Part shown: positions 9,315 to 52,484 of the stretch, piece after piece
Layout of the letters: each line of letters starts with the position of its first letter
Numbering within the stretch: the stretch's first letter is position 1
Assembly: GCA_003599745.1 (NCBI GenBank)
Contig: QZJL01000058.1
Span: forward strand, 1-54,464
DNA: 54,464 nt
Reading direction: 5' to 3'
From: Dehalococcoidia bacterium
GTDB taxonomy: Bacteria; Chloroflexota; Dehalococcoidia; Dehalococcoidales; SURF-40
Notes under the pieces: generated by a model
The model's database searches: none
Told to the model about the DNA's origin: nothing
What the model saw: only the letters and a program-made list of their open reading frames with translations
Position numbers and translations under genes: made by a program

Positions 9315-10364
9315 TCAATTTACGCAACGGAGCATACCTTCGCTTAGCTCTTCCACTACACCGCCACCAAGCAACGATGCTTTGAACCTCACCTTGCCAT
9401 CCGGCGCGGTGTAGGTACAGGCCTTCAGCGCGTCAAACAACACCACTCCCTTAAACGCCCATTCGCCAGCAGGAGACTCCTTGACGAATTCAGGTAATCG
9501 ATAACATTGCGAGTAACTATAAACCCGCTTTTTATAATACCATAGGTAAGACTGGCTTTCTTCAGTCCAACCTTCCAGCTTCGATACATACTTGCAACAA
9601 TACGAAGCTACATTTACCCGATTCTTATTCTCCAAACCACTACGCCCGTACTTCCATAATACAGACATTTCATCCTCTGCACGAACAAGAAATTGCAAAC
9701 CGGGGAAAAAGACGTGTAAATGAGGATATCCAAACGCCTCATTCCTTACCCTGTGCGACCCCTTTTTATGAGCATCACACTTTCTACCGTTAGCATCCTC
9801 AAAATGATACTCCGGTATCTCTTCAACCGCTTTCAAATATTTATAGCTATTCTTTTCTACTCTGAACCTCCGGGTATTTAACGTGTGCATTAACTTCCGT
9901 AAATGCACATTACAATCTCGCCACGCTTCCTCTTTAGTATAGCGTTTTGGGTCATAGGTCAGCGTCATCAACACTCCATCAGAAAACCACCTCGAACCTA
10001 AACGCTTCCGTATATTTCGTTGCATCAGCTTACGGCCACCAGCAAAATATCTTGATTTTTCCGCCGCCCTCACCACCATATAATCAGGAAAAGGCTTTTT
10101 ACTATCATACTTAGCTAACACGACCCCTTTGCTTTTCAACCTTTCTTTATGAGCTGCGAACTCAGCGCGGTCTTCTTTTGAAATCAGCGGTTTAACCCGT
10201 GACACATTAACTCTATTATGGACAAGGAAAGTAGGATTGTTTAAAAACTCTCCATTTTTATTACGCCAGCCCTGGGCGTACGAGCTTATCCCTTGCAAAC
10301 TAACCTGGGTCTGGTTAATTGATATATCTTCGGTTGACTCGGTTAAAAACGCCGTCTTTTTCAT
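9315..10364 (-). CDS. rep: rolling-circle replication initiator (HUH endonuclease, two-Tyr superfamily I)
   Basis: Three ordered motifs: VLMTLTYD (motif 1), GYPHLHVFF (HUH) and YCCKYVSK (Y-x-x-K-Y, as in phiX174 gpA-type Reps). AGAGGTG RBS. Confidence 0.75.
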   Translation of the reverse strand: MKKTAFLTESTEDISINQTQVSLQGISSYAQGWRNKNGEFLNNPTFLVHNRVNVSRVKPLISKEDRAEFAAHKERLKSKGVVLAKYDSKKPFPDYMVVRAAEKSRYFAGGRKLMQRNIRKRLGSRWFSDGVLMTLTYDPKRYTKEEAWRDCNVHLRKLMHTLNTRRFRVEKNSYKYLKAVEEIPEYHFEDANGRKCDAHKKGSHRVRNEAFGYPHLHVFFPGLQFLVRAEDEMSVLWKYGRSGLENKNRVNVASYCCKYVSKLEGWTEESQSYLWYYKKRVYSYSQCYRLPEFVKESPAGEWAFKGVVLFDALKACTYTAPDGKVRFKASLLGGGVVEELSEGMLRCVN

Positions 10365-10385
10365 CCACTACACCTCTTTTTAAGG

Positions 10386-10420
10386 GGTGGCGGATTAACC
10401 GCCACCACCTTTAATCCGCC
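10386..10420. promoter_or_regulatory. two mutually exclusive hairpins just upstream of the rep start
   Basis: GGTGGCGG-ATTAA-CCGCCACC (10386..10406) shares its left arm with the inverted repeat GGCGGATTAA (10389..10398) / TTAATCCGCC (10411..10420). Confidence 0.5.
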
Positions 10421-10623
10421 TTTCCTTTTTTAAGTGCACGGCATTGGCAGCACATACCGCCAGTTAGCCGTTTCCACTAATCTACACCGCAACTACACTA
10501 AAAACAAGTATCCAGTTTTCAAGGCTTTTACCTCATATCTTCTTTTTCCCTATTTACCCTATACCCTTTTTTCTTATTCATACTTTATACTCAAATCAAT
10601 TTAAAAATGAGTATATTCTTCTG

Positions 10624-10713
10624 TCGGGGAAGCACCGGTGCCGCAACCATACTCCGTATGGTCGTCTCGCTTTCCTGTAACCCAGCCTCACTTTGCGGCA
10701 GGCACTTCCCCGA
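10624..10713. other. 90-nt nested stem structure in the element control region
   Basis: Outer stem TCGGGGAAG (10624..10632) / CTTCCCCGA (10705..10713). Middle stem TGCCGCAA (10639..10646) / TTGCGGCA (10693..10700). Inner hairpin CCATAC-TCC-GTATGG (10647..10661). Confidence 0.4.
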
Positions 10714-10782
10714 CCTTACCATCCTTTCCGGTCTAGGTAATCCTTACTTCGCTATCACCATCTTTAATGGAACTATTCATTA

Positions 10783-10882
10783 TTGTCTGCCTGACCTTTC
10801 AAAGTTTATACCCTTGTCAAGGGACGCTACGCTCTAAAGCCCTTGACTTACGGGTTTCTTAAATTATTGAACAGGCAGACAA
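10783..10882. repeat. 11-bp perfect inverted repeat flanking the integrase promoter region
   Basis: TTGTCTGCCTG (10783..10793) and CAGGCAGACAA (10872..10882), each preceded by ATTATTG. The palindrome CCCTTG-T-CAAGGG lies between them. Confidence 0.5.
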
Positions 10883-10910
10883 GAAGTGCCTAGTTAAAGG
10901 AGAGTGAATT

Positions 10911-11780
10911 ATGGATAGAGCTCAGTACAGTACCTACGGAGAGATTATTTACCAAGACCTACTCGGCCGTGGCAAAAAACCATCTTCTGCCAAACAATGG
11001 GGAAGCATTATCACCAAGTTCGAGCAGATATGCGGCAACAAATCATCTTACGACCGGTCAGACGTCATCAAGTACCTTGCCGCCCGCAGACAAGCCGGTA
11101 TCAAGCAAAATACCATCAACAAAGAGTTACACGCTCTCAAGCTCCTCTGGCAATTGCTGGAAATCGATAAATTCCCGAAACTTAGTATGCCAAAAGTTAA
11201 AGACTCAGATATATCACGCCCTATCCTCGCCAAAGACCAGATAATACAGCTTATCCAGCGTAGCTTCGATACAGTCTCACCACGCTACCAGGCTTTCCTG
11301 GCCCTTGCCACGGTATACGGCATCCGCCGCGAAGAAATAACTCGTATCAACCCGAGCGAGCACATCAAAAACGGTCAGCTCACCATCCTTACCGCTAAAG
11401 GTGGCGTACCTACCAACCATATCATTCCTGAATGCCTACAACCTATCCTCAAGCACTTCGACCCTACCGATGTAATCTATCTAAGCTCAGTGTTCCGCAG
11501 GATTTGTCGCGCCTGCGGTATCAAAACAGGCAAGCGCTACGGCTGGCACAGCATACGCCGGGCACTCGTAACCGAGCTAGTCATATCCGAGGCATCAGGT
11601 CTTAATATCGTACGCTTTATGCGATGGAGCGACCAAACTTCCGGCAACGGCGAGTTCGGAATGCTCACTCTCTACGCCAAAAAAGACCAAGCTCAAATCG
11701 ATAAACAGATTTTCGCCGTTCATCCTTTCCTTCCAGTCTGGGAAAATCCCATCAACTTCAATACCAAAGGAGTAAAGTAA
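10911..11780 (+). CDS. tyrosine recombinase / integrase (paralog 1)
   Basis: Catalytic set in order: GIRREE (Arg), TAKGG (Lys), HSIRR (His-x-x-Arg), MRWSD (Trp), LYAKKD (Tyr). AAAGGAGAG RBS. Confidence 0.85.
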   Translation: MDRAQYSTYGEIIYQDLLGRGKKPSSAKQWGSIITKFEQICGNKSSYDRSDVIKYLAARRQAGIKQNTINKELHALKLLWQLLEIDKFPKLSMPKVKDSDISRPILAKDQIIQLIQRSFDTVSPRYQAFLALATVYGIRREEITRINPSEHIKNGQLTILTAKGGVPTNHIIPECLQPILKHFDPTDVIYLSSVFRRICRACGIKTGKRYGWHSIRRALVTELVISEASGLNIVRFMRWSDQTSGNGEFGMLTLYAKKDQAQIDKQIFAVHPFLPVWENPINFNTKGVK

Positions 11781-12670
11781 TGACCACCTGGTTAAGGTCT
11801 AAAAAAACATTTTCTCCCTACGGCGAAATGGTTTACCTTGACCTAATCGGTCGCGGCAAAACCTTACACACCGCCAGACAATGGGGGAACCTCATCTCCA
11901 ACTTCGAGCAGATATGCGGCAACAAATCATCTTACGACCGGTCAGACGTCATCAAGTACCTTGCCGCCCGCAGACAGGTCAACATCAACAACAATTCCCT
12001 AGTCCGCACTGAATTGGCCGCTCTCAAGCTTCTCTGGCAATTGCTTGAAATCGATAAATTCCCAAAACTCAATATGCCAAAAGTAAGGAATTATGACGTT
12101 CTACGGCCTATCCTCACCAAAGAACAAATCATCCAGCTTATTCAGTCAAGCTTCAACTCCGTTTCACTTCGTAATCAGGCTTTCCTGGCCCTTGCCACGG
12201 TATACGGCATCCGCCGCGAAGAAATGGCTCGCATCAACCCGAGCGAGCACATCAAAAACGGCCAGCTCACCATCCTTACCGCTAAAGGTGGCATACCCAC
12301 CAACCATATCATTCCTGAATGCCTACAAGCTATCCTCAAACACTTCGAGCCAATAGGGCCAACATCTCTTTCCACTTCCTTTCAGATTATCTGTAAATCC
12401 TGTGATATCCACCTCGGCCAGCGTTACGGCTGGCACAGCATACGCCGGGCACTCGTAACCGAGCTAGTCATATCCGAGGCATCAGCCCTTAACATCGTAC
12501 GCTTTATGCGATGGAGCGACCAAACTTCCGGCAACGGCGAGTTCCGGATGCTCGCACGCTACGCTAAAAAAGACCAAGCTCAAATCGATAAACAGATTTT
12601 CGCCGTTCATCCTTTCTTAAAATACTGGCAAACGCCAGTCAAAGCATACACCGAAGGAAAAGTAAAATGA
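11780..12670 (+). CDS. tyrosine recombinase / integrase (paralog 2)
   Basis: Same catalytic set as paralog 1 (GIRREE, TAKGG, HSIRR, MRWSD, RYAKKD). Its start overlaps the paralog 1 stop (TAATG). Confidence 0.85.
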   Translation: MTTWLRSKKTFSPYGEMVYLDLIGRGKTLHTARQWGNLISNFEQICGNKSSYDRSDVIKYLAARRQVNINNNSLVRTELAALKLLWQLLEIDKFPKLNMPKVRNYDVLRPILTKEQIIQLIQSSFNSVSLRNQAFLALATVYGIRREEMARINPSEHIKNGQLTILTAKGGIPTNHIIPECLQAILKHFEPIGPTSLSTSFQIICKSCDIHLGQRYGWHSIRRALVTELVISEASALNIVRFMRWSDQTSGNGEFRMLARYAKKDQAQIDKQIFAVHPFLKYWQTPVKAYTEGKVK

Positions 12671-16123: not shown

Positions 16124-16387
16124 ATGGCGATAAGATTAAAGAGCTGTCCCAAGTGCGGCGGCGACGTCCGCATTGACCGCGACGAGTACGGCTGGTTCGA
16201 GCAGTGTATCCAGTGTGGCTATGAACGCGACCTGGAAACCATCGTGGTGAAGCCGCAGCATCCGCAAAGAGGCGAGCCGCAAAAAGGCGGGAACTGGCAC
16301 CACGGAAATGTCGAGCTTGGCCCGATTGTGCCATTCTCTCTGCCGTCGGAAGATCTCCGCAAGGAAAAGAGGGCACGGACGGCTTAA
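16124..16387 (+). CDS. zinc-ribbon protein
   Basis: Contains CPKCGG..x19..CIQCG. No further family recognised. Confidence 0.5.
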   Translation: MAIRLKSCPKCGGDVRIDRDEYGWFEQCIQCGYERDLETIVVKPQHPQRGEPQKGGNWHHGNVELGPIVPFSLPSEDLRKEKRARTA

Positions 16388-16458: not shown

Positions 16459-17211
16459 CTAGAAGCCGGTCGGCGGCTGCCAGCGGATAACGCGGCCCGT
16501 CCAGACCTGCCTGATGGCGGCTGCCAAAGTCGCCTGCCCGGGATGGCGGATATCCAGGCGGTAAGGCAGGACACGCTGGGCAAGCCGCCCGCTGAAAGCA
16601 CACTCTTTCTGGAAAGCCGCCAGGGTGAATTTTTCACCGCCGTAGACCATATAGTCCATTTCCCGCAGGTGCGACTCGAAATGCTCACGCATATGGCCGC
16701 ATACCCGGCTAAAAAACGACTCCGCCTGCTTTTCCCGGTGACGGCGAAAACGCGCCGCCGAAGAGCCGCCCTGGCGGTGGCGGGCGTGTACCAGGCCGGT
16801 ACCCACCTTGCTCGACACCAGTTTTTCACCATCGAAAACGCCAACCGCGTAGGCCCCGAGGCGCAGGAGCACGATGCCAATGGTGGACTCGGTTTCGAGC
16901 ATTAACCTGAGCGGTTCAACGGTGTAGCCACCGAAAATTGCCTTTTCTTTAACCGGAAAGGGCGGCAGCACCACAAGGCGGTAAGGCTCACCCCAGAAAA
17001 CCACCGCACCTGTCGGAGCGCTTAAAAACCCCGCCAAATCGGGCAGGGCTTCTGCCAGCCCCGGCACTCTGGCGGCCAGCCCGGCGGCTTCATCGGACGG
17101 ACAATCCGGCAGCAGGTAAAGCGACCCGGCTTCGCCGTCGGCGGCTTTAATCTCGCCGAGCAGGTCGAGCAGGTGCCGCCTTTTCAGTCTTTCCTCACCG
17201 GTAACCGGCAT
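16459..17211 (-). CDS. Vms1/VLRF1-like (acVLRF1-type) putative peptidyl-tRNA hydrolase
   Basis: The core GAYAVGVFDGEKLVSSKVGTGLVHARHRQGGSSAARFRRHREKQ matches my recollection of the bacterial VLRF1 signature (GGYAVGVF..L..SKVG...GG.S..RF.RRRE.Q). Its ATG overlaps the mutS2 TGA by 1 nt. Confidence 0.6.
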   Translation of the reverse strand: MPVTGEERLKRRHLLDLLGEIKAADGEAGSLYLLPDCPSDEAAGLAARVPGLAEALPDLAGFLSAPTGAVVFWGEPYRLVVLPPFPVKEKAIFGGYTVEPLRLMLETESTIGIVLLRLGAYAVGVFDGEKLVSSKVGTGLVHARHRQGGSSAARFRRHREKQAESFFSRVCGHMREHFESHLREMDYMVYGGEKFTLAAFQKECAFSGRLAQRVLPYRLDIRHPGQATLAAAIRQVWTGRVIRWQPPTGF

Positions 17212-19553
17212 CAGGACTCCTTCAGGCTGACCACCGTCGCCCCATCGCCGCCCTCGCCACGGCCACCCGAGCGGAAGGATTTGACCAGGGGATGGCCGGC
17301 AAGTGTCTCGCGGACAATCTGGCGCACCACCCCGGTACCGAAGCCATGGATGATGCGTACCCCGTCAAGATTGGCGAGGGTGGCGTCATCGAGGTAGGCG
17401 CCGACCGCCAGGGCGACCTCGTCCGCCCGCCGGCCACGCAGGTCAAGTTCCATCGGCACGGTTTTGGCGGGAATCTGTGACCGCAGCCTCGCGGATGGTT
17501 TGCCTGCCGGCGCGCCACCCACCTTCGTTACGCTGTCCAGGCTGACCCGGGCGCGGGTGGCCCCGGCCTGGACTTCGACCTGGCGTTTTGTTTTATCCAC
17601 CGAGAGGATGGTGGCTTCGAGACCGATGTCACCGAGCAATACCCGGTCTCCGGTCTTAACTTCCGCTGGTGTACCGGTCTGGACGGTCGGGGGCGCCGTC
17701 TTCCTCAATCTGCCGTGCACCGAGGCCAGGGCTTCACGCGCCTGCGCCAGTCCTTCTTCAGTCTTCGTTTTCTTTAAGTCAGCCGCCGCCTGGCGGATGA
17801 GCCGCTGAAGTTCAGCGGCCTCGGCGACCACCCGGTCCCTGGCTTCGCTCAGCACCGCCGCCTCGCGCTCTTTGAGATTTTGCCGGGCGGTTTCCATCTC
17901 CAAGCCCAGCGCCTGCGCCTTGGCACTGGCATTTCCCAGGTCGTGGCGCTGGACTTCCAGGCGCTGCTTCTCCTGATTCAAATCGTTAAGCAACTCTGCC
18001 AAATCCTGGCTGGCCTTGCCCAGCAAGCCCTTTGCCAAAGCCGCGATTTGTTCTGGCAGGCCCAGACGAACGGCGGTGGCAAGGGCGTTTGAGCCGCCGG
18101 GGATGCCCAACACCAGGCGATAGGTCGGCGCCAGTGTCACCGGGTCAAAATCTAGAGACGCGTTCTGCAGGCCCGGCGTGCGGTGGGCAAAGACCTTAAG
18201 CTCGTTAAAATGCGAGGTGGCGACTACCAGCGAGCCGCGCTCAAGGAAATAGAGTAACAGCGCCCGGGCGAGCGCGGCACCTTCCTCGGGGTCGGTGCTT
18301 GAGCCAAGCTCGTCCAAAAGCACCAGGCTTTTGGCGGTCGAGTTTTTAATGATGCGGACGATGTTGCCCATGTGCCAGCTGAAGGTGGAGAGTGTGCTCT
18401 CGATGCTCTGCTCGTCACCGATGTCGGCAAAGACGCCGTCAAATACCGGGATGAGGCTGCCGCTTGAGGCGGGGATGGGCATCCCCGCCAGGGTCATCAA
18501 GGCCGTCAAGCCGATGGTTTTGAGTGCCACCGTTTTGCCGCCGGTGTTGGGGCCGGTGATGACCAGCCCGGAAAAATCGCGGCCGATCTCCACCGAGAGG
18601 GGAACAGCCTTGTCCCCGAGTAAAGGGTGGCGGGCATTAACCAGCTTCAAAACCTTCTCGGCGGTGATGGCGGCTTCTTCGGCCTTGAAGCGGGCGGCGA
18701 ACCGGGCCTTGGCCAGCGCCAGGTCAACCGCCGCCATTCTGGCGACGTGTACCGCTATTTCGTTAACGTTTGCCCCGACCTCGGTAGAGAGTACGAGGAG
18801 AATGCGTTCCACCTCGCGCTTTTCGGCAACTTCCAGCTCCCGTAGCTCGTTGCCCAGCTCGACCGTCACCAGCGGTTCGATAAAAACGGTGACACCGGTG
18901 TTGGAAACATCGTGGACGATGCCCCGGAACTCCTTTTTCATCTCCGCTTTTACGGGGACGACGTAGCGCCCGTCGCGCTCGGTGATGACCGCCTCCTGCA
19001 AAAAGCGCTGGCTGCGGCCGGACTTGACGATGGCATCGAGGCGGGCGCGCAGGCGCTCGCGCTTTACCCGCAGTTCGCGGCGCAGGCGGCCAAGCTCCGG
19101 CGAGGCTGAGTCCAGCACCTCGCCGCCCGGGGCGATGGCGGAAGCGATGTGCTCTTCGATATAAGCCAGAGGGACAATATCTTTAGCCAAATCCCATAAG
19201 AGGGGAAACCCGTCGGCACGTTTTTGCAGTCCGTCGCGGACGCGGCGGGCAATAGCCAGCGTCTCGCGGACGGCGTGCAGGGTCTGGGGCTCTAGCATCT
19301 TGCCCTTCTGCGCCATCTCCGCCGCTTCGCGGACATCGCTCGCACCGCCCAGTGAAAGCCCTGCCTCCTGGGAGAGCAGACGGCGGGCTTCAGCGGACTC
19401 TCCCAGCCACCGGGTGACGGTCTCCGCATCAGAGGATGGCACAAAGTTGAGCGCCAGTTCTTTGCTCGCGGTAAAGGCGGTAAAACCGGCGAGCAATTCT
19501 CGCACCTTGGGAAATTCCAGGATTTCGAGACTCTTGGTATCCAAAAAAACCAC
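17211..19553 (-). CDS. mutS2: endonuclease MutS2 (Smr-domain; RqcU-type)
   Basis: 780 aa with Walker A GPNTGGKT, the MutS ATPase core, a coiled-coil linker and a C-terminal Smr domain (LDLRGRRADEV...IIHGFGTGVVRQ). Confidence 0.95.
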   Translation of the reverse strand: MVFLDTKSLEILEFPKVRELLAGFTAFTASKELALNFVPSSDAETVTRWLGESAEARRLLSQEAGLSLGGASDVREAAEMAQKGKMLEPQTLHAVRETLAIARRVRDGLQKRADGFPLLWDLAKDIVPLAYIEEHIASAIAPGGEVLDSASPELGRLRRELRVKRERLRARLDAIVKSGRSQRFLQEAVITERDGRYVVPVKAEMKKEFRGIVHDVSNTGVTVFIEPLVTVELGNELRELEVAEKREVERILLVLSTEVGANVNEIAVHVARMAAVDLALAKARFAARFKAEEAAITAEKVLKLVNARHPLLGDKAVPLSVEIGRDFSGLVITGPNTGGKTVALKTIGLTALMTLAGMPIPASSGSLIPVFDGVFADIGDEQSIESTLSTFSWHMGNIVRIIKNSTAKSLVLLDELGSSTDPEEGAALARALLLYFLERGSLVVATSHFNELKVFAHRTPGLQNASLDFDPVTLAPTYRLVLGIPGGSNALATAVRLGLPEQIAALAKGLLGKASQDLAELLNDLNQEKQRLEVQRHDLGNASAKAQALGLEMETARQNLKEREAAVLSEARDRVVAEAAELQRLIRQAAADLKKTKTEEGLAQAREALASVHGRLRKTAPPTVQTGTPAEVKTGDRVLLGDIGLEATILSVDKTKRQVEVQAGATRARVSLDSVTKVGGAPAGKPSARLRSQIPAKTVPMELDLRGRRADEVALAVGAYLDDATLANLDGVRIIHGFGTGVVRQIVRETLAGHPLVKSFRSGGRGEGGDGATVVSLKES

Positions 19554-19565
19554 CCGATAAAGGGT

Positions 19566-20063
19566 CTAAAAGAGACGGAGCTTCGCCGGCGGGCGGCGGT
19601 AACCCTCATCGCGCGGCCAGCCCGAGGCCTTCGCGGTCTCGTTGGCAAGCCGGTCGCAGCGGAGATTCTCGGCGCTGGTATTATGTCCCCGTACCCAGCG
19701 GAAGGCGACTTCGTGACGCTCGCAGACTTTTAGCAGCCTTTCCCAGAGGTCGGGGTTACGGGCGGCCTCGTTCTTGTTGCGCCGCCAGCCCATTTTCTGC
19801 CAGCGTTTTGCCCAGCCTTTTGTTACGGCGTTCACCAGATAAGACGAGTCGCTGTAAAGTTCCACCCGGCACTTTTCGCCGAGCGTCTCCAGCGCGGTGA
19901 TGGCGGCTATCATCTCCATGCGGTTGTTGGTGGTATCTTTGAAGCCGCCCTTAAGCTCGCGACGCTGGCCGTCGGCGATGATGAGGGCGGCGTAGCCTCC
20001 CCGGCCGGGGTTACCCAGGCAGGCGCCGTCGGTGTAGATGGTGACCGCTTTCAATTTTTCCAT
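19566..20063 (-). CDS. rnhA: ribonuclease HI
   Basis: I trimmed the track ORF to the ATG at 20063 (MEKLKAVTIYTDGACLGNPGRGGY). The DEDD catalytic residue context is present. Confidence 0.93.
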   Translation of the reverse strand: MEKLKAVTIYTDGACLGNPGRGGYAALIIADGQRRELKGGFKDTTNNRMEMIAAITALETLGEKCRVELYSDSSYLVNAVTKGWAKRWQKMGWRRNKNEAARNPDLWERLLKVCERHEVAFRWVRGHNTSAENLRCDRLANETAKASGWPRDEGYRRPPAKLRLF

Positions 20064-20092
20064 ATCGTTAGCATTATAGCACGAAATCCTGT

Positions 20093-20122
20093 TTGCCCTC
20101 TTATCCCCCGCTTTGCTATAAT
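20093..20122 (+). promoter_or_regulatory. sigma-70-like promoter
   Basis: TTGCCC (20093..20098), an 18-nt spacer, then extended -10 TGCTATAAT (TATAAT at 20117..20122). Lies 34 nt upstream of the small ORF. Confidence 0.45.
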
Positions 20123-20155
20123 GTGCGGGTATTCTGCTAACAGCGAGAAAGAAAA

Positions 20156-20290
20156 ATGCCTGCAAAGAAAAAGGTAGAATCTAAGCTTCCCGACCTCGAG
20201 ACCTTCGTTGCCGGGGTAAACAAAAAGTCTCACGCCTACGGCAAGAAAGTCCGCTTCGGCTTCACCAAGCGCAAGCGCATCCGGGGTTAA
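20156..20290 (+). CDS. 44-aa highly basic mini-protein (not in ORF track)
   Basis: Translation is MPAKKKVESKLPDLETFVAGVNKKSHAYGKKVRFGFTKRKRIRG. It fills an otherwise empty 230-nt gap behind a good promoter. The RBS is weak. Confidence 0.35.
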   Translation: MPAKKKVESKLPDLETFVAGVNKKSHAYGKKVRFGFTKRKRIRG

Positions 20291-23250: not shown

Positions 23251-23659
23251 TTTCAGCCTCCGGGGCTATCTCCTCAATCAATCTCATCACTCTTTTCTTG
23301 ACCTCATCCCTGATTTTTCTGACCGCCTCAATGGGCTTATCGTGAGGGTCGGCGAGCGCCCAGTCCTCGGTCTCGATGAAGCTCGCCGGGCAGACCGCCT
23401 GCGCGTCAGCGCCGCAGCCCATCGTTATCATCCGGCTAGCCTTCTCCACCATATCCATGGTGAGTGCCCTGGGTTTGTGGCTGCTGATGTCTATGCCAAC
23501 CTCGCGCATCGCCTCGACAACCACCGGATTCACCTCTTCGGCGGGTTGTGTGCCTGCGGAAATTGCCTGCGCCTCTCCCTTTGCCAGCTGGTTGAAGAAA
23601 GCCTCGGCCATCTGGCTGCGGCCCGAGTTGTGTACGCAAACGAAGAGGATGCTTTTCAC
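23237..23659 (-). CDS. arsC: arsenate reductase (LMW-PTPase / thioredoxin-coupled type)
   Basis: Starts MKSILFVCVHNSGRSQMAEAFF (CX5R P-loop), with downstream Cys residues. Confidence 0.9.
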   Translation of the reverse strand: MKSILFVCVHNSGRSQMAEAFFNQLAKGEAQAISAGTQPAEEVNPVVVEAMREVGIDISSHKPRALTMDMVEKASRMITMGCGADAQAVCPASFIETEDWALADPHDKPIEAVRKIRDEVKKRVMRLIEEIAPEAENAGD

Positions 23660-24207
23660 GACGATGCCTCCTTTTTTTGACCGCCGTCACGGACTTCGAA
23701 ATGCCGGTTTTTCAGGTAACGTTCCATTAAATACCCGATGCCGATGAAGAGGGGCAGAGACACCAGCGTGCGCACCAGCGAGAATTCGATACCCAGGTAG
23801 CCAATTTCAATACCGAGCATTGGAATCTTTATGGAAGAGAAAGCTCCCAGGTAAATAAAGATATTCCTGATGCCGGCTCCTTTTCGATAAAGCAGGTAGG
23901 CCACCGGGAAGGCCCCGTACAGCGGTCCTGCCTGGAGCATGGCAAGCAGCACCACCAGTGCGATGCCCTTGATGCCGGACCCCCGCCCGATGTGTTTCTG
24001 AATCCTTTCTTTAGGCACCCAGACATCAAAAAGCCCGACGATGATAAAAAGGAAAGGCACGAAGGTGACCATTTCGACAAGAGACTGTGTGAAGCTGGTA
24101 AAGATGGTCTTACCGGGATTGAAGCCAAGTACAAAAGACAGGACGGTAAGGACGGCGTAAGCCGCCACCCAGATGTAGCCACGGTGCTTTGAGAAAAACT
24201 TTTTCAC
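23656..24207 (-). CDS. permease, C-terminal-half-like subunit of a split DUF318-type permease
   Basis: Five TM helices. ATGA-type 4-nt overlaps with both neighbouring genes. Confidence 0.7.
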   Translation of the reverse strand: MKKFFSKHRGYIWVAAYAVLTVLSFVLGFNPGKTIFTSFTQSLVEMVTFVPFLFIIVGLFDVWVPKERIQKHIGRGSGIKGIALVVLLAMLQAGPLYGAFPVAYLLYRKGAGIRNIFIYLGAFSSIKIPMLGIEIGYLGIEFSLVRTLVSLPLFIGIGYLMERYLKNRHFEVRDGGQKKEASS

Positions 24208-24698
24208 GACAATAAACCCAGTATCAGGCCCACCACCAATCCGATAATCAGCGCGGCTACGAAATTCATGGCATTCCGGGTGATGGCCACGGCTTTACCA
24301 AAATACTTAATCTCCAGCGGCAACGTGATCATCCCCACCATCATCAAGGTGGTCATAAATACCGCGACCACCGCGTAGGAAGCGCCCTGCTGGATAAGAC
24401 CGGCGGCAATCGGGTAGGAGATGAAACCGGGAATCAACGTGATAGAACCGACCAGCGCCGCTATCGCGAAGCCAAGTACTCCTGATTTTGCGCCCAGGTA
24501 TTGACTGATGACGTTTGGAGGAATGAAATACAGTACGACACTGATTAAAATCAGGATATTCAAAAAAGGGAGCAGCACATTCCGGAACATCTTCCAGCCT
24601 CTTTTGAATCCCTCCAGCGTCTTTTTTCTGTCGAGGGCGAAAGATAACCCCGACAGGATAGCGCTAAGTGTTATGAAAATGACGGCATTAGTACTCAA
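24204..24698 (-). CDS. permease, N-terminal-half-like subunit of a split DUF318-type permease
   Basis: Four to five TM helices. Overlaps the following gene by 4 nt. Confidence 0.7.
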   Translation of the reverse strand: MSTNAVIFITLSAILSGLSFALDRKKTLEGFKRGWKMFRNVLLPFLNILILISVVLYFIPPNVISQYLGAKSGVLGFAIAALVGSITLIPGFISYPIAAGLIQQGASYAVVAVFMTTLMMVGMITLPLEIKYFGKAVAITRNAMNFVAALIIGLVVGLILGLLS

Positions 24699-24991: not shown

Positions 24992-26026
24992 TCAGGCTAT
25001 CAAACCGAAGACGTAGCCAGTGGTAGTCGCCATGACCACTACCAGGGCAACGTAGGTGAGCATCTTCTTCGTCCCCATAACGTTGCGGATAACCAGCATG
25101 CTGGGTAACGAGAGGGCTGGCCCTGCTAAAAGCAACGCCAACGCCGGCCCCTTGCCCATACCGAGGTCCATGAAAGCTCTAATGATGGGCACTTCGGTTA
25201 GGGTGGCAAAGTACATCAGGGCACCGGCGAACGAGGCGATAAAACTCGCCGGCAGGCTGTTACCGCCAACATATCGCGTTACGATTGATTGAGGAATGAC
25301 CACCGTCAGAATACCGGCGATAAAGACACCCACCAGCAGCCAGGGGATAATCAGGCGGGTAAAATGCAGCGTCTCTTTCAACCACCGCACAATCTCACCT
25401 TTTGTAAACCAGCGCCACAGGATTACAGCTGCCGCCGCCAGGAAGATGACCATTACAATCCAGTTCTTAGAGGCGGCGAAGACGAGCACGCCCACCAGAG
25501 ACCCGATAAAAAGAACCTGTTGCCAGATGCTCTTACCAGCCGGGTCGCTGGCCAGCATGGCAAACGCCTGCGCGTCAGCCTGGGACTTTTCTTTGCGGTA
25601 TATGAAGGCCATAATCAGGCCGATGATTACCGAAAAGGCAATCGCACCAATCGCTCTGGCGAAGCCAATATCAAAACCAAGCAATTTAGCCGAATAGACA
25701 ATCGCCAGGACGTTAATGGCCGGGCCTGAGAAAAGGAAGGCGATAGCCGGGCCCAGGCCAGCCCCCTTTTTATAGATACCCGCAAACAGGGGTAACACCG
25801 TGCAGGAGCAAACTGCCAGTACCGCACCCGAAACGGAGGCCACGCCATATGAAACCGGCTTCTTGGTCTGCGGGCCGAAATACCTGAGAACGGCAGCCTG
25901 CGAAACGAATGCCGCAATCGCTCCGGCGATGAACAGCGCCGGCACCAGGCAGGTTATAACATGAGCGGACAGGTATTCTGTCAAACCGTTGATTCCGCCC
26001 CGAAAAAGACTGGCAATTGTCTCCAT
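24992..26026 (-). CDS. DUF318 family permease (ArsP-like)
   Basis: 344-aa polytopic protein with the AVCSCTVLPLF vicinal-Cys motif. Confidence 0.85.
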   Translation of the reverse strand: METIASLFRGGINGLTEYLSAHVITCLVPALFIAGAIAAFVSQAAVLRYFGPQTKKPVSYGVASVSGAVLAVCSCTVLPLFAGIYKKGAGLGPAIAFLFSGPAINVLAIVYSAKLLGFDIGFARAIGAIAFSVIIGLIMAFIYRKEKSQADAQAFAMLASDPAGKSIWQQVLFIGSLVGVLVFAASKNWIVMVIFLAAAAVILWRWFTKGEIVRWLKETLHFTRLIIPWLLVGVFIAGILTVVIPQSIVTRYVGGNSLPASFIASFAGALMYFATLTEVPIIRAFMDLGMGKGPALALLLAGPALSLPSMLVIRNVMGTKKMLTYVALVVVMATTTGYVFGLIA

Positions 26027-28508: not shown

Positions 28509-30350
<1,842 letters not shown>

Positions 30351-30362
30351 AAGTTTACGAAC

Positions 30363-31751
30363 CTATTTCGAAATATCTTTGGCAAGCGCGTATAATGCCG
30401 CGAGCATGGCCTCGTCGTCTTCGGGCAGGACGGAGCGCGGGTCGAGCAGGAGGACGTCCTCGCTGATGCGCCCGATAACCGGGATGACCGGGGACTGGCG
30501 CAGCCGACGAGAAAGCGCCTGGGCGCTCTGCCCCCGCTTGTTGCCTGGGCCGACTGCCACCAGCCGGGTCTTGAGGGTCTCGCCGGGCAGACTGCCGCCG
30601 CCGATGGTGCTTTCGCCATCCTGTAACCTGGCAAGGCCGCCGAGCGCCTCCACCCAGCGCCTGGCGCGGCGACTAAGTTCTTCGGGAGAAGCCGAAATCA
30701 TGCGCCAGACGGGAATTTCTTGCGGTGCTTCTTCCCTGAGATAGTGAACCAGCGTGGCCGCCAGACCCGCGAGGCGCACTTTATCAATGCGCACCGCCCG
30801 TGCCAGCGGGTGCTTTTTCAGCCTGTCAACCGCAGCTTTCTTGCCCGCGATGATGCCCGCCTGCGGGCCACCGATGAGCTTGTCGCCGGAGAAAAAGGCG
30901 AGGTCGGCACCCAGCTTGATACTTGCCTGTACCGTCGGCTCGGGGGCAAGGCCGTAAGTCGCAGTATCCAGCAGGCAGCCGCTGCCCAGGTCGTCAAATA
31001 CCAGAATATTATGATTGCGGGCGATAGTTACTAACTCGGCCAGCGTCACCTCGCTGGTGAAGCCGGTCACCCGAAAGTTCGAGGTGTGGACGCGCAGCAG
31101 CGCCGCCGTGCGCTCGGTGATGGCCTGCTCGAAGTCGGCAATATAGGTGCGGTTGGTGGTGCCGACCTCGACCAGCTTCGCCCCGCTCTGGCGCATCACG
31201 TCGGGGATGCGGAAGCCGCCGCCAATCTCCACCGCCTGCCCCCTCGAAACGATGACCTCCTTGCGCGAGGCAAGGGCGCTAAGCCCCAGCAGTACCGCCG
31301 CCGCATTGTTATTCACTACCAGCGCCGCCTCGGCGCCGGTGAGACGGCAGACGAGCGGCTCGATAAAGACCTGGCGCTCACCGCGGCTGCCAGTACTCAG
31401 GTCGAACTCAAGGTTGGAAAAGCCGCGCGACACCGCCGCCATGGCGCTGATGGCGGCACGGCTTAAAGGCGCCCGCCCCAGATTGGTGTGCAGGATGACA
31501 CCGGTAGCGTTGATGACCGGTCTCAGGCCGGGCTGGACTAACGCCTCAACATGGACGGCTACCGCCCCGGCAATTTCATCGAGGGAAGGGACAGGCTTAC
31601 CTACGGCAATGCTGCGCCGGGCATCTTCGAGACGCTCTCTTGTGAGATTTAGCAGCAAATCGTGGGAGAAAGAGTTGCCAAGCTCTTTCAGACGTTCGCC
31701 GGCAAGCACGCGGTCAACGCTGGGCAGATTTCGCAATTCACCGCTGGGCAT
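30363..31751 (-). CDS. selA: L-seryl-tRNA(Sec) selenium transferase
   Basis: 462 aa. N-terminal LRNLPSVDRVL, then INATGVILHTNLGRAPL, and the PLP Lys context FSGDKLIGGPQAGI. Confidence 0.95.
   Translation of the reverse strand: MPSGELRNLPSVDRVLAGERLKELGNSFSHDLLLNLTRERLEDARRSIAVGKPVPSLDEIAGAVAVHVEALVQPGLRPVINATGVILHTNLGRAPLSRAAISAMAAVSRGFSNLEFDLSTGSRGERQVFIEPLVCRLTGAEAALVVNNNAAAVLLGLSALASRKEVIVSRGQAVEIGGGFRIPDVMRQSGAKLVEVGTTNRTYIADFEQAITERTAALLRVHTSNFRVTGFTSEVTLAELVTIARNHNILVFDDLGSGCLLDTATYGLAPEPTVQASIKLGADLAFFSGDKLIGGPQAGIIAGKKAAVDRLKKHPLARAVRIDKVRLAGLAATLVHYLREEAPQEIPVWRMISASPEELSRRARRWVEALGGLARLQDGESTIGGGSLPGETLKTRLVAVGPGNKRGQSAQALSRRLRQSPVIPVIGRISEDVLLLDPRSVLPEDDEAMLAALYALAKDISK

Positions 31752-48419: not shown

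Positions 48420-52480
<4,061 letters not shown>

Positions 52481-52484
<4 letters not shown>

Follow-up and report, generated by a model that had tools for sequence, protein, structure and literature searches.

When a stalled bacterial ribosome has been split, what frees the nascent chain from the large subunit, and could the factor that does so be encoded beside the splitting enzyme? The question is raised by two genes in a 54-kb stretch of Dehalococcoidia DNA (contig QZJL01000058.1, 54 464 nt, referred to throughout as the window), in which mutS2 is followed on the minus strand by a gene for a 250-aa relative of the release factor aRF1/eRF1 and of Vms1/ANKZF1. An earlier note, made from the letters of the sequence, had proposed that the pair is a ribosome-rescue module. 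We find that the same two genes are neighbours in two subclades of the Chloroflexota, in opposite orders, and that the smaller protein belongs to the acVLRF1 family (VLRF1 below, with vlrf1 for the gene).

Release is the least understood step of bacterial ribosome-associated quality control (RQC). In Bacillus subtilis, MutS2 (RqcU) binds collided ribosomes via its KOW and Smr domains and uses ATP hydrolysis to split them, leaving the mRNA uncut (PMC10897456), and the split ribosomes still bear peptidyl-tRNA (PMC10897456, PMC11317155). The release itself is performed by Pth, besides which no dedicated termination factor is known for bacterial RQC (PMC11317155, PMC8012679).

The gene pair and its junction

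The upstream gene, mutS2 (17211..19553, minus strand, GTG start), encodes a protein of 780 aa that scores 810 bits against the TIGR01069 mutS2 model (cut-off 400) and exceeds the Pfam cut-offs for MutS_V, MSSS and Smr. MutS domain V, the ABC-type ATPase, occupies residues 330–510 (18024..18566, minus strand; PF00488, 105 bits), the MSSS or KOW-like SH3 domain residues 635–674 (17532..17651, minus strand; PF20297, 30.2 bits against a cut-off of 26.8) and the Smr domain, with its DLRG and HGFGTG motifs, residues 703–778 (17220..17447, minus strand; PF01713, 80 bits). Comparison with the B. subtilis MutS2 in the collided-disome structures 7qv3 and 8qpp/8r55 produced an alignment free of large indels, in which residues 6–778 correspond to residues 3–785 of the B. 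subtilis protein (PDB 7qv3/8qpp, E-value 6.6e-148). Walker A (GPNTGGKT) and Walker B (LVLLDELG) are both seen in this alignment, and the Smr motif is DLR, rather than DxH, in both proteins. The assignment in the earlier note of this protein to the RqcU type with an Smr domain is thus borne out by the profile match, the domain set and the colinearity alike. By orthology with the B. subtilis enzyme, and on that basis only, the window MutS2 would be expected to split collided ribosomes in an ATP-dependent manner.

The downstream gene, vlrf1 (16459..17211, minus strand, ATG start), encodes the 250-aa protein. The mutS2 TGA (17213..17211) and the vlrf1 ATG (17211..17209) share an A, forming a TGATG overlap at 17209..17213 on the minus strand that is exactly where it had been placed; the junction reads AGCCTGAAGGAGTCCTGATGCCG on that strand. 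A Shine-Dalgarno sequence for vlrf1, AAGGAG (17222..17217, minus strand), can be read from the sequence within the final mutS2 codons, 5 nt before the ATG. Scans for promoter and terminator consensus sequences were uninformative for the locus. One-base overlaps between genes are, on their own, commonplace, and what goes beyond chance here is the retention of the pair in other genomes rather than the overlap.

The small protein is a truncated relative of archaeal aRF1

The 250-aa protein is recorded in the database as a hypothetical protein (C4555_06030), and a relative sharing 72 % identity with it is named a Vms1/Ankzf1 family peptidyl-tRNA hydrolase. Over residues 110–241 it matches positions 2–129 of the 130 in the Pfam acVLRF1 model PF18859 with 90.3 bits (gathering score 27.1), and there are weaker matches to baeRF_family10 and eRF1_2. 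When a profile built from 32 homologues was compared with the PDB, archaeal aRF1 (4af1) was found at an E-value of 2.6e-15, together with eRF1, and in the alignment with aRF1 the sequence RQGGSSAARF lies opposite RKGGQSAQRF, that is, GGSS over GGQS. An AlphaFold2 model (predicted local distance difference test score 84, predicted template modelling score 0.81) has low confidence at loop 141–148, as expected for a GGQ-type loop in such a prediction. Foldseek searches with this model found aRF1 (2.4e-9) and yeast Vms1 (on the 60S subunit, 6r84, 2.9e-4; 5whg, 3.3e-3), and also eRF1, the hibernation factor Balon and Pelota. Hidden Markov model and structural comparison therefore both place the protein among VLRF1/eRF1-like factors, as had been claimed, and the peptide quoted in support of that claim, LGAYAVGVFDGEKLVSSKVGTGLVHARHRQGGSSAARFRRHREKQ, is present in its translation. 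Judged by sequence and by predicted fold, it is nearer to archaeal aRF1 than to Vms1.

The N-terminal 85 or so residues align to the N-domain of aRF1/eRF1, with the NIKS-bearing segment deleted, and nothing follows the M-domain, so that the C-domain is missing. These losses (the stop-codon-binding and C-terminal domains, with a short N-terminal region left) agree with the published description of acVLRF-1 (PMC6514570). From the alignment, what has been called a distinctive N-terminal extension in this family looks more like what is left of the stop-codon-reading domain than like a new element. As its N-domain is truncated and its C-domain missing, the protein should be unable to read codons or to bind a GTPase or ABCE1.

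Conservation of the pair in two gene orders

In order to establish whether the adjacency extends beyond this genome, one genome per species in the Genome Taxonomy Database (GTDB) was scanned with a family alignment and 80 loci were kept (the clade-1 set). All are in metagenome-assembled genomes of Chloroflexota/Dehalococcoidia, and their VLRF1 proteins are 43–73 % identical to that of the window. Loci were counted as informative if 800 nt or more of sequence was available upstream; of the 74 such loci, 65 have mutS2 directly upstream of vlrf1 and on the same strand. The distance from the MutS2 stop to the VLRF1 start has a median of 31 nt and is no more than 50 nt in 46 of these 65, with gaps of 4–90 nt in most relatives. 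Hence, the TGATG overlap in its exact form characterises this genome and not the clade. Loci that lack an upstream MutS2 have unrelated neighbours (DinB, transporters, response regulators) and no alternative splitter.

As a control for general synteny, all window open reading frames (ORFs) of at least 100 aa within 6–30 kb were searched against the 80 loci. MutS2 recurs in 64 of them, a radical-SAM gene in five, and each of the other neighbours (RNase HI, a Crp-type regulator, UbiX, a transporter and others) in a single locus, that of the closest relative. Clustering of all ORFs of the 80 loci against one another found only two real genes that were widely common, VLRF1 (79) and MutS2 (65); the next best neighbours were a sirtuin, present in 15 of the 80 loci, a protein resembling rubrerythrin and a small Zn-ribbon protein. 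No third conserved partner was found by this clustering in either this set or the distant set described below. The RNase HI gene (19566–20165, minus strand) lies upstream of mutS2, ending 12 nt before its start, and may be co-transcribed with it in the window, but as only the closest relative retains this neighbour it lies outside the mutS2-vlrf1 module.

A second set of 80 loci was obtained by scanning metagenome contigs with an alignment of distant family representatives. Most of these belong to a marine clade with metabolic neighbours (SDR, RpiB, Abhydrolase_10) and no MutS2. In eleven, however, VLRF1 is followed immediately, on the same strand, by MutS2, the reverse of the order in the window. 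This reverse-order clade was extended by a protein search and by examination of five contexts in long contigs and genomes (0.5–5 Mb), every one of which has acVLRF1 followed by a gene with MutS_V and Smr domains; the genes overlap by 7–10 nt in three lineages, the genomes with such overlaps measuring 3.3–5 Mb, and are separated by 72–278 nt in two.

When 171 loci were clustered by VLRF1 sequence, three groups were obtained. In clade 1 (81 members including the window) mutS2 precedes vlrf1 in 66, and in clade 2 (23 loci representing about a dozen distinct lineages) vlrf1 precedes mutS2 in 22. Partner MutS2 proteins with a readable motif all have D[LI]RG and none DxH, and nearly all of the full-length ones have Walker A and B. 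The adjacency reported for the window is therefore found well beyond it. Among the clades sampled, the pairing is confined to these two Chloroflexota subclades and missing from the third. In further Chloroflexota subclades vlrf1 follows rsmI, the gene for a 16S rRNA 2'-O-methyltransferase, or has MetRS or AlaRS genes nearby, neighbours that fit a translation-related role. Two examples with acVLRF1 directly after rsmI are L172:4107-5750, in which the gap is 3 nt, and L174:4071-5768. The occurrence of both gene orders, the close spacing and the survival of the pair where other synteny has been lost form a pattern that is classically that of a functional operon, and these sequence comparisons suggest that the pair is one.

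Insertions at the junction

Two loci (L038 and L045) appeared to encode in-frame MutS2-VLRF1 fusions, but when translated both prove to have a stop codon separating the two genes; of 150 family representatives listed, none exceeds 306 aa. The gaps of 500–700 nt in a further five loci were considered as possible sites of a third module gene and were found to hold a transposase ORF instead. This ORF, of approximately 190 aa and related to the RAYT/IS200-like tyrosine transposases, lies exactly between mutS2 and vlrf1 and on the same strand in five related genomes (L003:5428-5991, L006:1723-2292, L008:2166-2633, L009:1302-1892 and L011:2545-3135) and includes the motifs YDYSQAGAYFITICT, MPNHxHGI and WQRNYYEHVIRNE. 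Both mutS2 and vlrf1 are kept in all five, and the spacer between them seems to be a recurrent landing site for the transposase. In another locus, L019, a small membrane ORF and not a transposase lies between the two genes.

A conserved GG loop with a mobile glutamine

The loop of the acVLRF-1 family was defined by Burroughs and Aravind (2019) as GGxSQ (PMC6514570). The equivalent loop in the window protein, RHRQGGSSAARFRRHREKQ (residues 144–162; 16726..16782, minus strand), has GGSSA, as the earlier note had warned, with Ala152 at the family Gln position and a Gln, Q147, at −1 to the GG. In one alignment (A1) residues R144, H145, G148, G149, S150, S151, R154, F155, R157, H158, R159, K161 and Q162 are invariant and position 152 is variable (A, Q, S or E). 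Of the 78 clade-1 loci with a readable loop, one genome per species, 36 have Q at position 152 and 42 have A, S or E there. The GG is directly preceded by a Gln (RQGG) in 33 of these 42 and in only one of the 36 with Q.

Among 84 clade sequences, 40 have Q only at +3, 34 only at −1, one at both and nine at neither, so that 75 of the 84 species have a Gln at one or other position. On a neighbour-joining tree of the same 84 sequences parsimony requires no fewer than 12 changes at +3 and no fewer than 16 at −1. The suggestion in the earlier note that the Gln has been displaced to RQGG therefore gains support from the recurrent and mutually exclusive pattern, but as a rule it is not absolute given the nine species with neither. 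In representatives of the whole family at 50 % identity about two-thirds have GGxSQ, and some have GGQSQ, with the classical GGQ as well. A group with GGWSQ, approached as a route to actinobacterial members, consists of Chloroflexota or SAR202 by source names.

Our reading of these alignments is that the loop is under strong selection and not decayed as in Pelota, and that a Gln at a fixed position is not required. Substitutions of the Gln in bacterial release factors lower hydrolysis only modestly, and the variation seen here would be compatible with hydrolysis mediated by the backbone. It would also agree with the chemistry of a tRNA nuclease, as reported for ANKZF1/Vms1 (PMC7026593). A purely structural role of the loop fits the pattern of conservation less well.

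A proposed pathway and the alternatives to it

We consider it somewhat probable that MutS2 splits collided ribosomes and that the VLRF1 homologue then detaches the nascent chain from the 50S-peptidyl-tRNA. The proposal builds on what the two proteins are, on a tight linkage between them that is conserved in two orders and on a loop strongly conserved apart from its Gln. From these we infer that this MutS2 in particular splits ribosomes, what the VLRF1 homologue acts on, the order of events and the chemistry. In outline, MutS2/RqcU would use its KOW-like and Smr domains to recognise collided ribosomes, and its ABC-type ATPase would split the stalled ribosome. The co-expressed acVLRF1 protein, which consists of an eRF1 M-domain and a truncated N-domain and is without a C-domain, would then dock on the 50S-peptidyl-tRNA, and its GG loop would enter toward the peptidyl-transferase centre, where the nascent chain would be detached either by hydrolysis of the ester or by cleavage of the 3' end of the tRNA as by Vms1/ANKZF1.

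Several observations weigh against this proposal. The score of the 250-aa protein against the NCBIfam acVLRF1 model NF041024 (102.6 bits) is under the cut-off of 125. The presumed catalytic Gln of GGxSQ is an Ala in the window protein, and no Gln is found at −1, +1 or +3 in nine of the 84 clade species or in 43 of the 120 closest protein clusters; classical Gln-assisted hydrolysis is therefore not a conserved requirement. In clade 3 (marine, 60 loci) no locus has the pairing, with no MutS2 within about 6 kb, and the acVLRF-1 family is found also in Actinobacteria (PMC6514570), where mutS2 is missing (PMC11633108), so that VLRF1 is not an obligate partner of MutS2. Finally, the enzyme responsible for release in B. 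subtilis, a canonical Pth, is encoded in the same window (51903..52484, plus strand; PF01195, 225 bits), directly after a gene for NAD-dependent DNA ligase. Its presence is to be expected, as Pth is a housekeeping enzyme, and the VLRF1 homologue would then add to Pth and not replace it.

A bolder form of the proposal is that RQC in many Chloroflexota ends as it does in eukaryotes, with splitting by MutS2 followed by the action of an operon-encoded 50S release factor of the Vms1 type, perhaps in place of RqcH/RqcP tailing, and with a chemistry that does not depend on the Gln. We advance this only tentatively and think it somewhat doubtful. The Gln-independent chemistry is suggested by a Gln that moves between −1 and +3 or is missing while the rest of the loop is fixed. 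If the idea is correct, ANKZF1-like cleavage of the tRNA 3' end is one possibility, and repair of the CCA would then be needed.

The linkage could also reflect a partnership of a different kind, in which a non-catalytic VLRF1 homologue at the A-site or the intersubunit face tags the stalled ribosome or the 50S subunit, or keeps hold of it, and assists or licenses MutS2. This would resemble Pelota/Dom34, which acts with the ABC ATPase ABCE1, or the non-catalytic aeRF1 homologue Balon. The loss of the family Gln in about half of the clade species, and from all nearby positions in some, is what such a role would allow, Balon and Pelota are among the Foldseek matches, the ATPase of MutS2 is likewise of the ABC type, and inactive members of the eRF1 family that take part in subunit separation are known (discussion in PMC10897456). 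However, Pelota/Dom34-type factors combine a degenerate or absent GGQ loop with retained N- and C-domains, whereas in this family the GG and its flanks (RH..GGSS..RF.RHR.KQ) are invariant, which is unexpected for a decayed loop. The C-terminal domain by which Pelota and eRF1 contact an ATPase or GTPase is missing, as is the decoding region of the N-domain, and B. subtilis MutS2 splits disomes in vitro unaided by any VLRF1-like partner (PMC10897456). We regard this explanation as unlikely. Less likely again is that release comes first, the VLRF1 homologue acting like ArfB on the stalled 70S of the collided pair and MutS2 then recycling the vacant ribosome. The operon linkage supports this order equally, the loop is conserved and eRF1-like, and a small protein that is mainly M-domain could fit the 70S A site; against this, it has neither a basic C-terminal tail nor a decoding domain with which to sense an empty mRNA channel, the characterised member Vms1/ANKZF1 works on the 60S subunit after splitting (PMC7026593, PMC11317155), and the ribosomes that MutS2 splits still carry their peptidyl-tRNA (PMC10897456, PMC11317155).

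Finally, the pair might have nothing to do with ribosomes. MutS2 is still annotated as endonuclease MutS2 and could act in DNA recombination or repair, with its RNase-H-fold neighbour working on nucleic-acid intermediates, or the gene order might be inherited without function. The RNase HI gene 12 nt upstream in the window would suit such a role but is a neighbour in just one of the 80 loci, whereas the pair outlasts all other synteny and exists in reverse order, the partner has the loop and fold of a release factor, and the readable partner MutS2 proteins have DxR and not DxH, the state of the non-nucleolytic B. subtilis MutS2 (PMC10897456). We consider this very improbable.

Other features of the window

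An 87-aa Zn-ribbon protein (CPKCGG…CxQCGY, with a weak match to Lar_restr_allev) is encoded at 16124-16387 on the plus strand, convergent to vlrf1. Homologues occur within a few kilobases of the pair in 11 of the 80 clade-1 loci, but as their position and orientation vary the linkage is loose. A Rep-like ORF (9315..10364, minus strand; weak match to REP_ORF2-G2P) and two tandem ORFs of approximately 290 aa with weak phage-integrase matches (10911..11780 and 11780..12670) lie between cobS and dsbD-like genes, and a small element may have integrated in the region 9315-12670. Two half-length ORFs for ArsP_1 permeases, adjacent and overlapping by 4 nt (23656..24207 and 24204..24698, minus strand) adjoin a full-length ArsP_1 gene (24992..26026, minus strand), and are either a split or frameshifted paralogue or a genuine two-piece permease. 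The genes selB (613 aa) and selA (462 aa), for selenocysteine machinery, are adjacent at 28509-31751 on the minus strand; ARAGORN found no tRNA gene, tRNA-Sec included, in the 54-kb window.

Significance

An operon made up of a collision-sensing splitter and a factor of the Vms1/eRF1 type provides a concrete candidate for a dedicated termination factor in bacterial RQC, and suggests that the eukaryote-like logic of splitting followed by Vms1 exists in bacteria. The Gln varies naturally (Q, A or S at +3, with Q at −1 in compensation), which provides a mutational series ready for use that could help to decide whether VLRF1-type factors are hydrolases or tRNA nucleases.

A published survey records mutS2 in 35 and rqcH in 26 of 41 Chloroflexota genomes (PMC11633108, Table 1), and 1781 mutS2 against 404 rqcH in the FCB group, comprising Fibrobacterota, Chlorobiota and Bacteroidota (PMC11633108). 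In the Actinobacteriota mutS2 was found in none of 3213 genomes and rqcH is likewise missing (PMC11633108). The related bVLRF-1 family is found predominantly in Bacteroidetes (PMC6514570). The mutS2 and rqcH counts point to VLRF1-type factors as possible stand-ins where MutS2 occurs without RqcH, and this may explain the lineages of that kind, namely part of the Chloroflexota and, by the literature numbers, most of the FCB-group genomes surveyed.

The pairing of mutS2 with vlrf1 appears to be unreported, though both protein families have already been described. The main text of the paper defining acVLRF-1 (PMC6514570) does not mention MutS2 or Smr; the structural study of MutS2 (Park et al. 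2023, PMC10897456), whose comparative-genomics authors are common to the acVLRF-1 paper, does not mention VLRF1, Vms1 or gene neighbourhoods; and full-text literature searches for MutS2 with VLRF1 or Vms1, or with operon, found no report of the pairing. We rate what is new here as a variant of bacterial RQC built from known parts.

Comparison with known systems

Small proteins derived from release factors are known from other rescue systems, such as the stand-alone bacterial GGQ factors PrfH, which forms a two-gene rescue operon with RtcB (PMC6514570), and ArfB. However, these have the unrelated peptidyl-hydrolase fold of the bacterial release factors, their partner is an RNA ligase or there is none, and they act on the 70S ribosome. 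Pelota/Dom34 with ABCE1, of archaea and eukaryotes, offers another parallel, as a protein of the aeRF1 superfamily is again paired with an ABC-type ATPase, and ABCE1 splits stalled ribosomes as is proposed for MutS2. It differs in that Pelota has lost the GGQ loop and kept its N- and C-domains, while the window protein keeps the GG and is without the C-domain, and in that MutS2 is related to ABCE1 only through the ABC fold.

The closest family is acVLRF-1 itself (PF18859; Burroughs and Aravind 2019), with which the window protein shares the Pfam match, the absence of stop-codon-reading and C-terminal domains and the short N-terminal region; it differs in having GGSSA instead of GGxSQ, at a position that is variable in the clade. 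The B. subtilis pathway, in which MutS2/RqcU is followed by Ala-tailing by RqcH/RqcP and then by Pth, has a MutS2 that is orthologous to that of the window from end to end, and Pth is also encoded in the window, but the coupling of mutS2 to a factor of the eRF1/Vms1 type has no counterpart in that pathway.

With Vms1/ANKZF1 (eVLRF-1) the window protein shares, by the Pfam model, membership in the aeRF1 superfamily's VLRF-1 clade, an RNase-H-fold M-domain with a Gly-containing loop and a predicted fold that matches Vms1 on the 60S subunit, and the role proposed for it is the same, namely to free the nascent chain, once splitting has taken place, from the large subunit. At 250 aa it is without the zinc finger, ankyrin, VIM and treble-clef domains, the Gln of its motif is an Ala, and its partner splitter is MutS2 and not RQT or Pelota-ABCE1.

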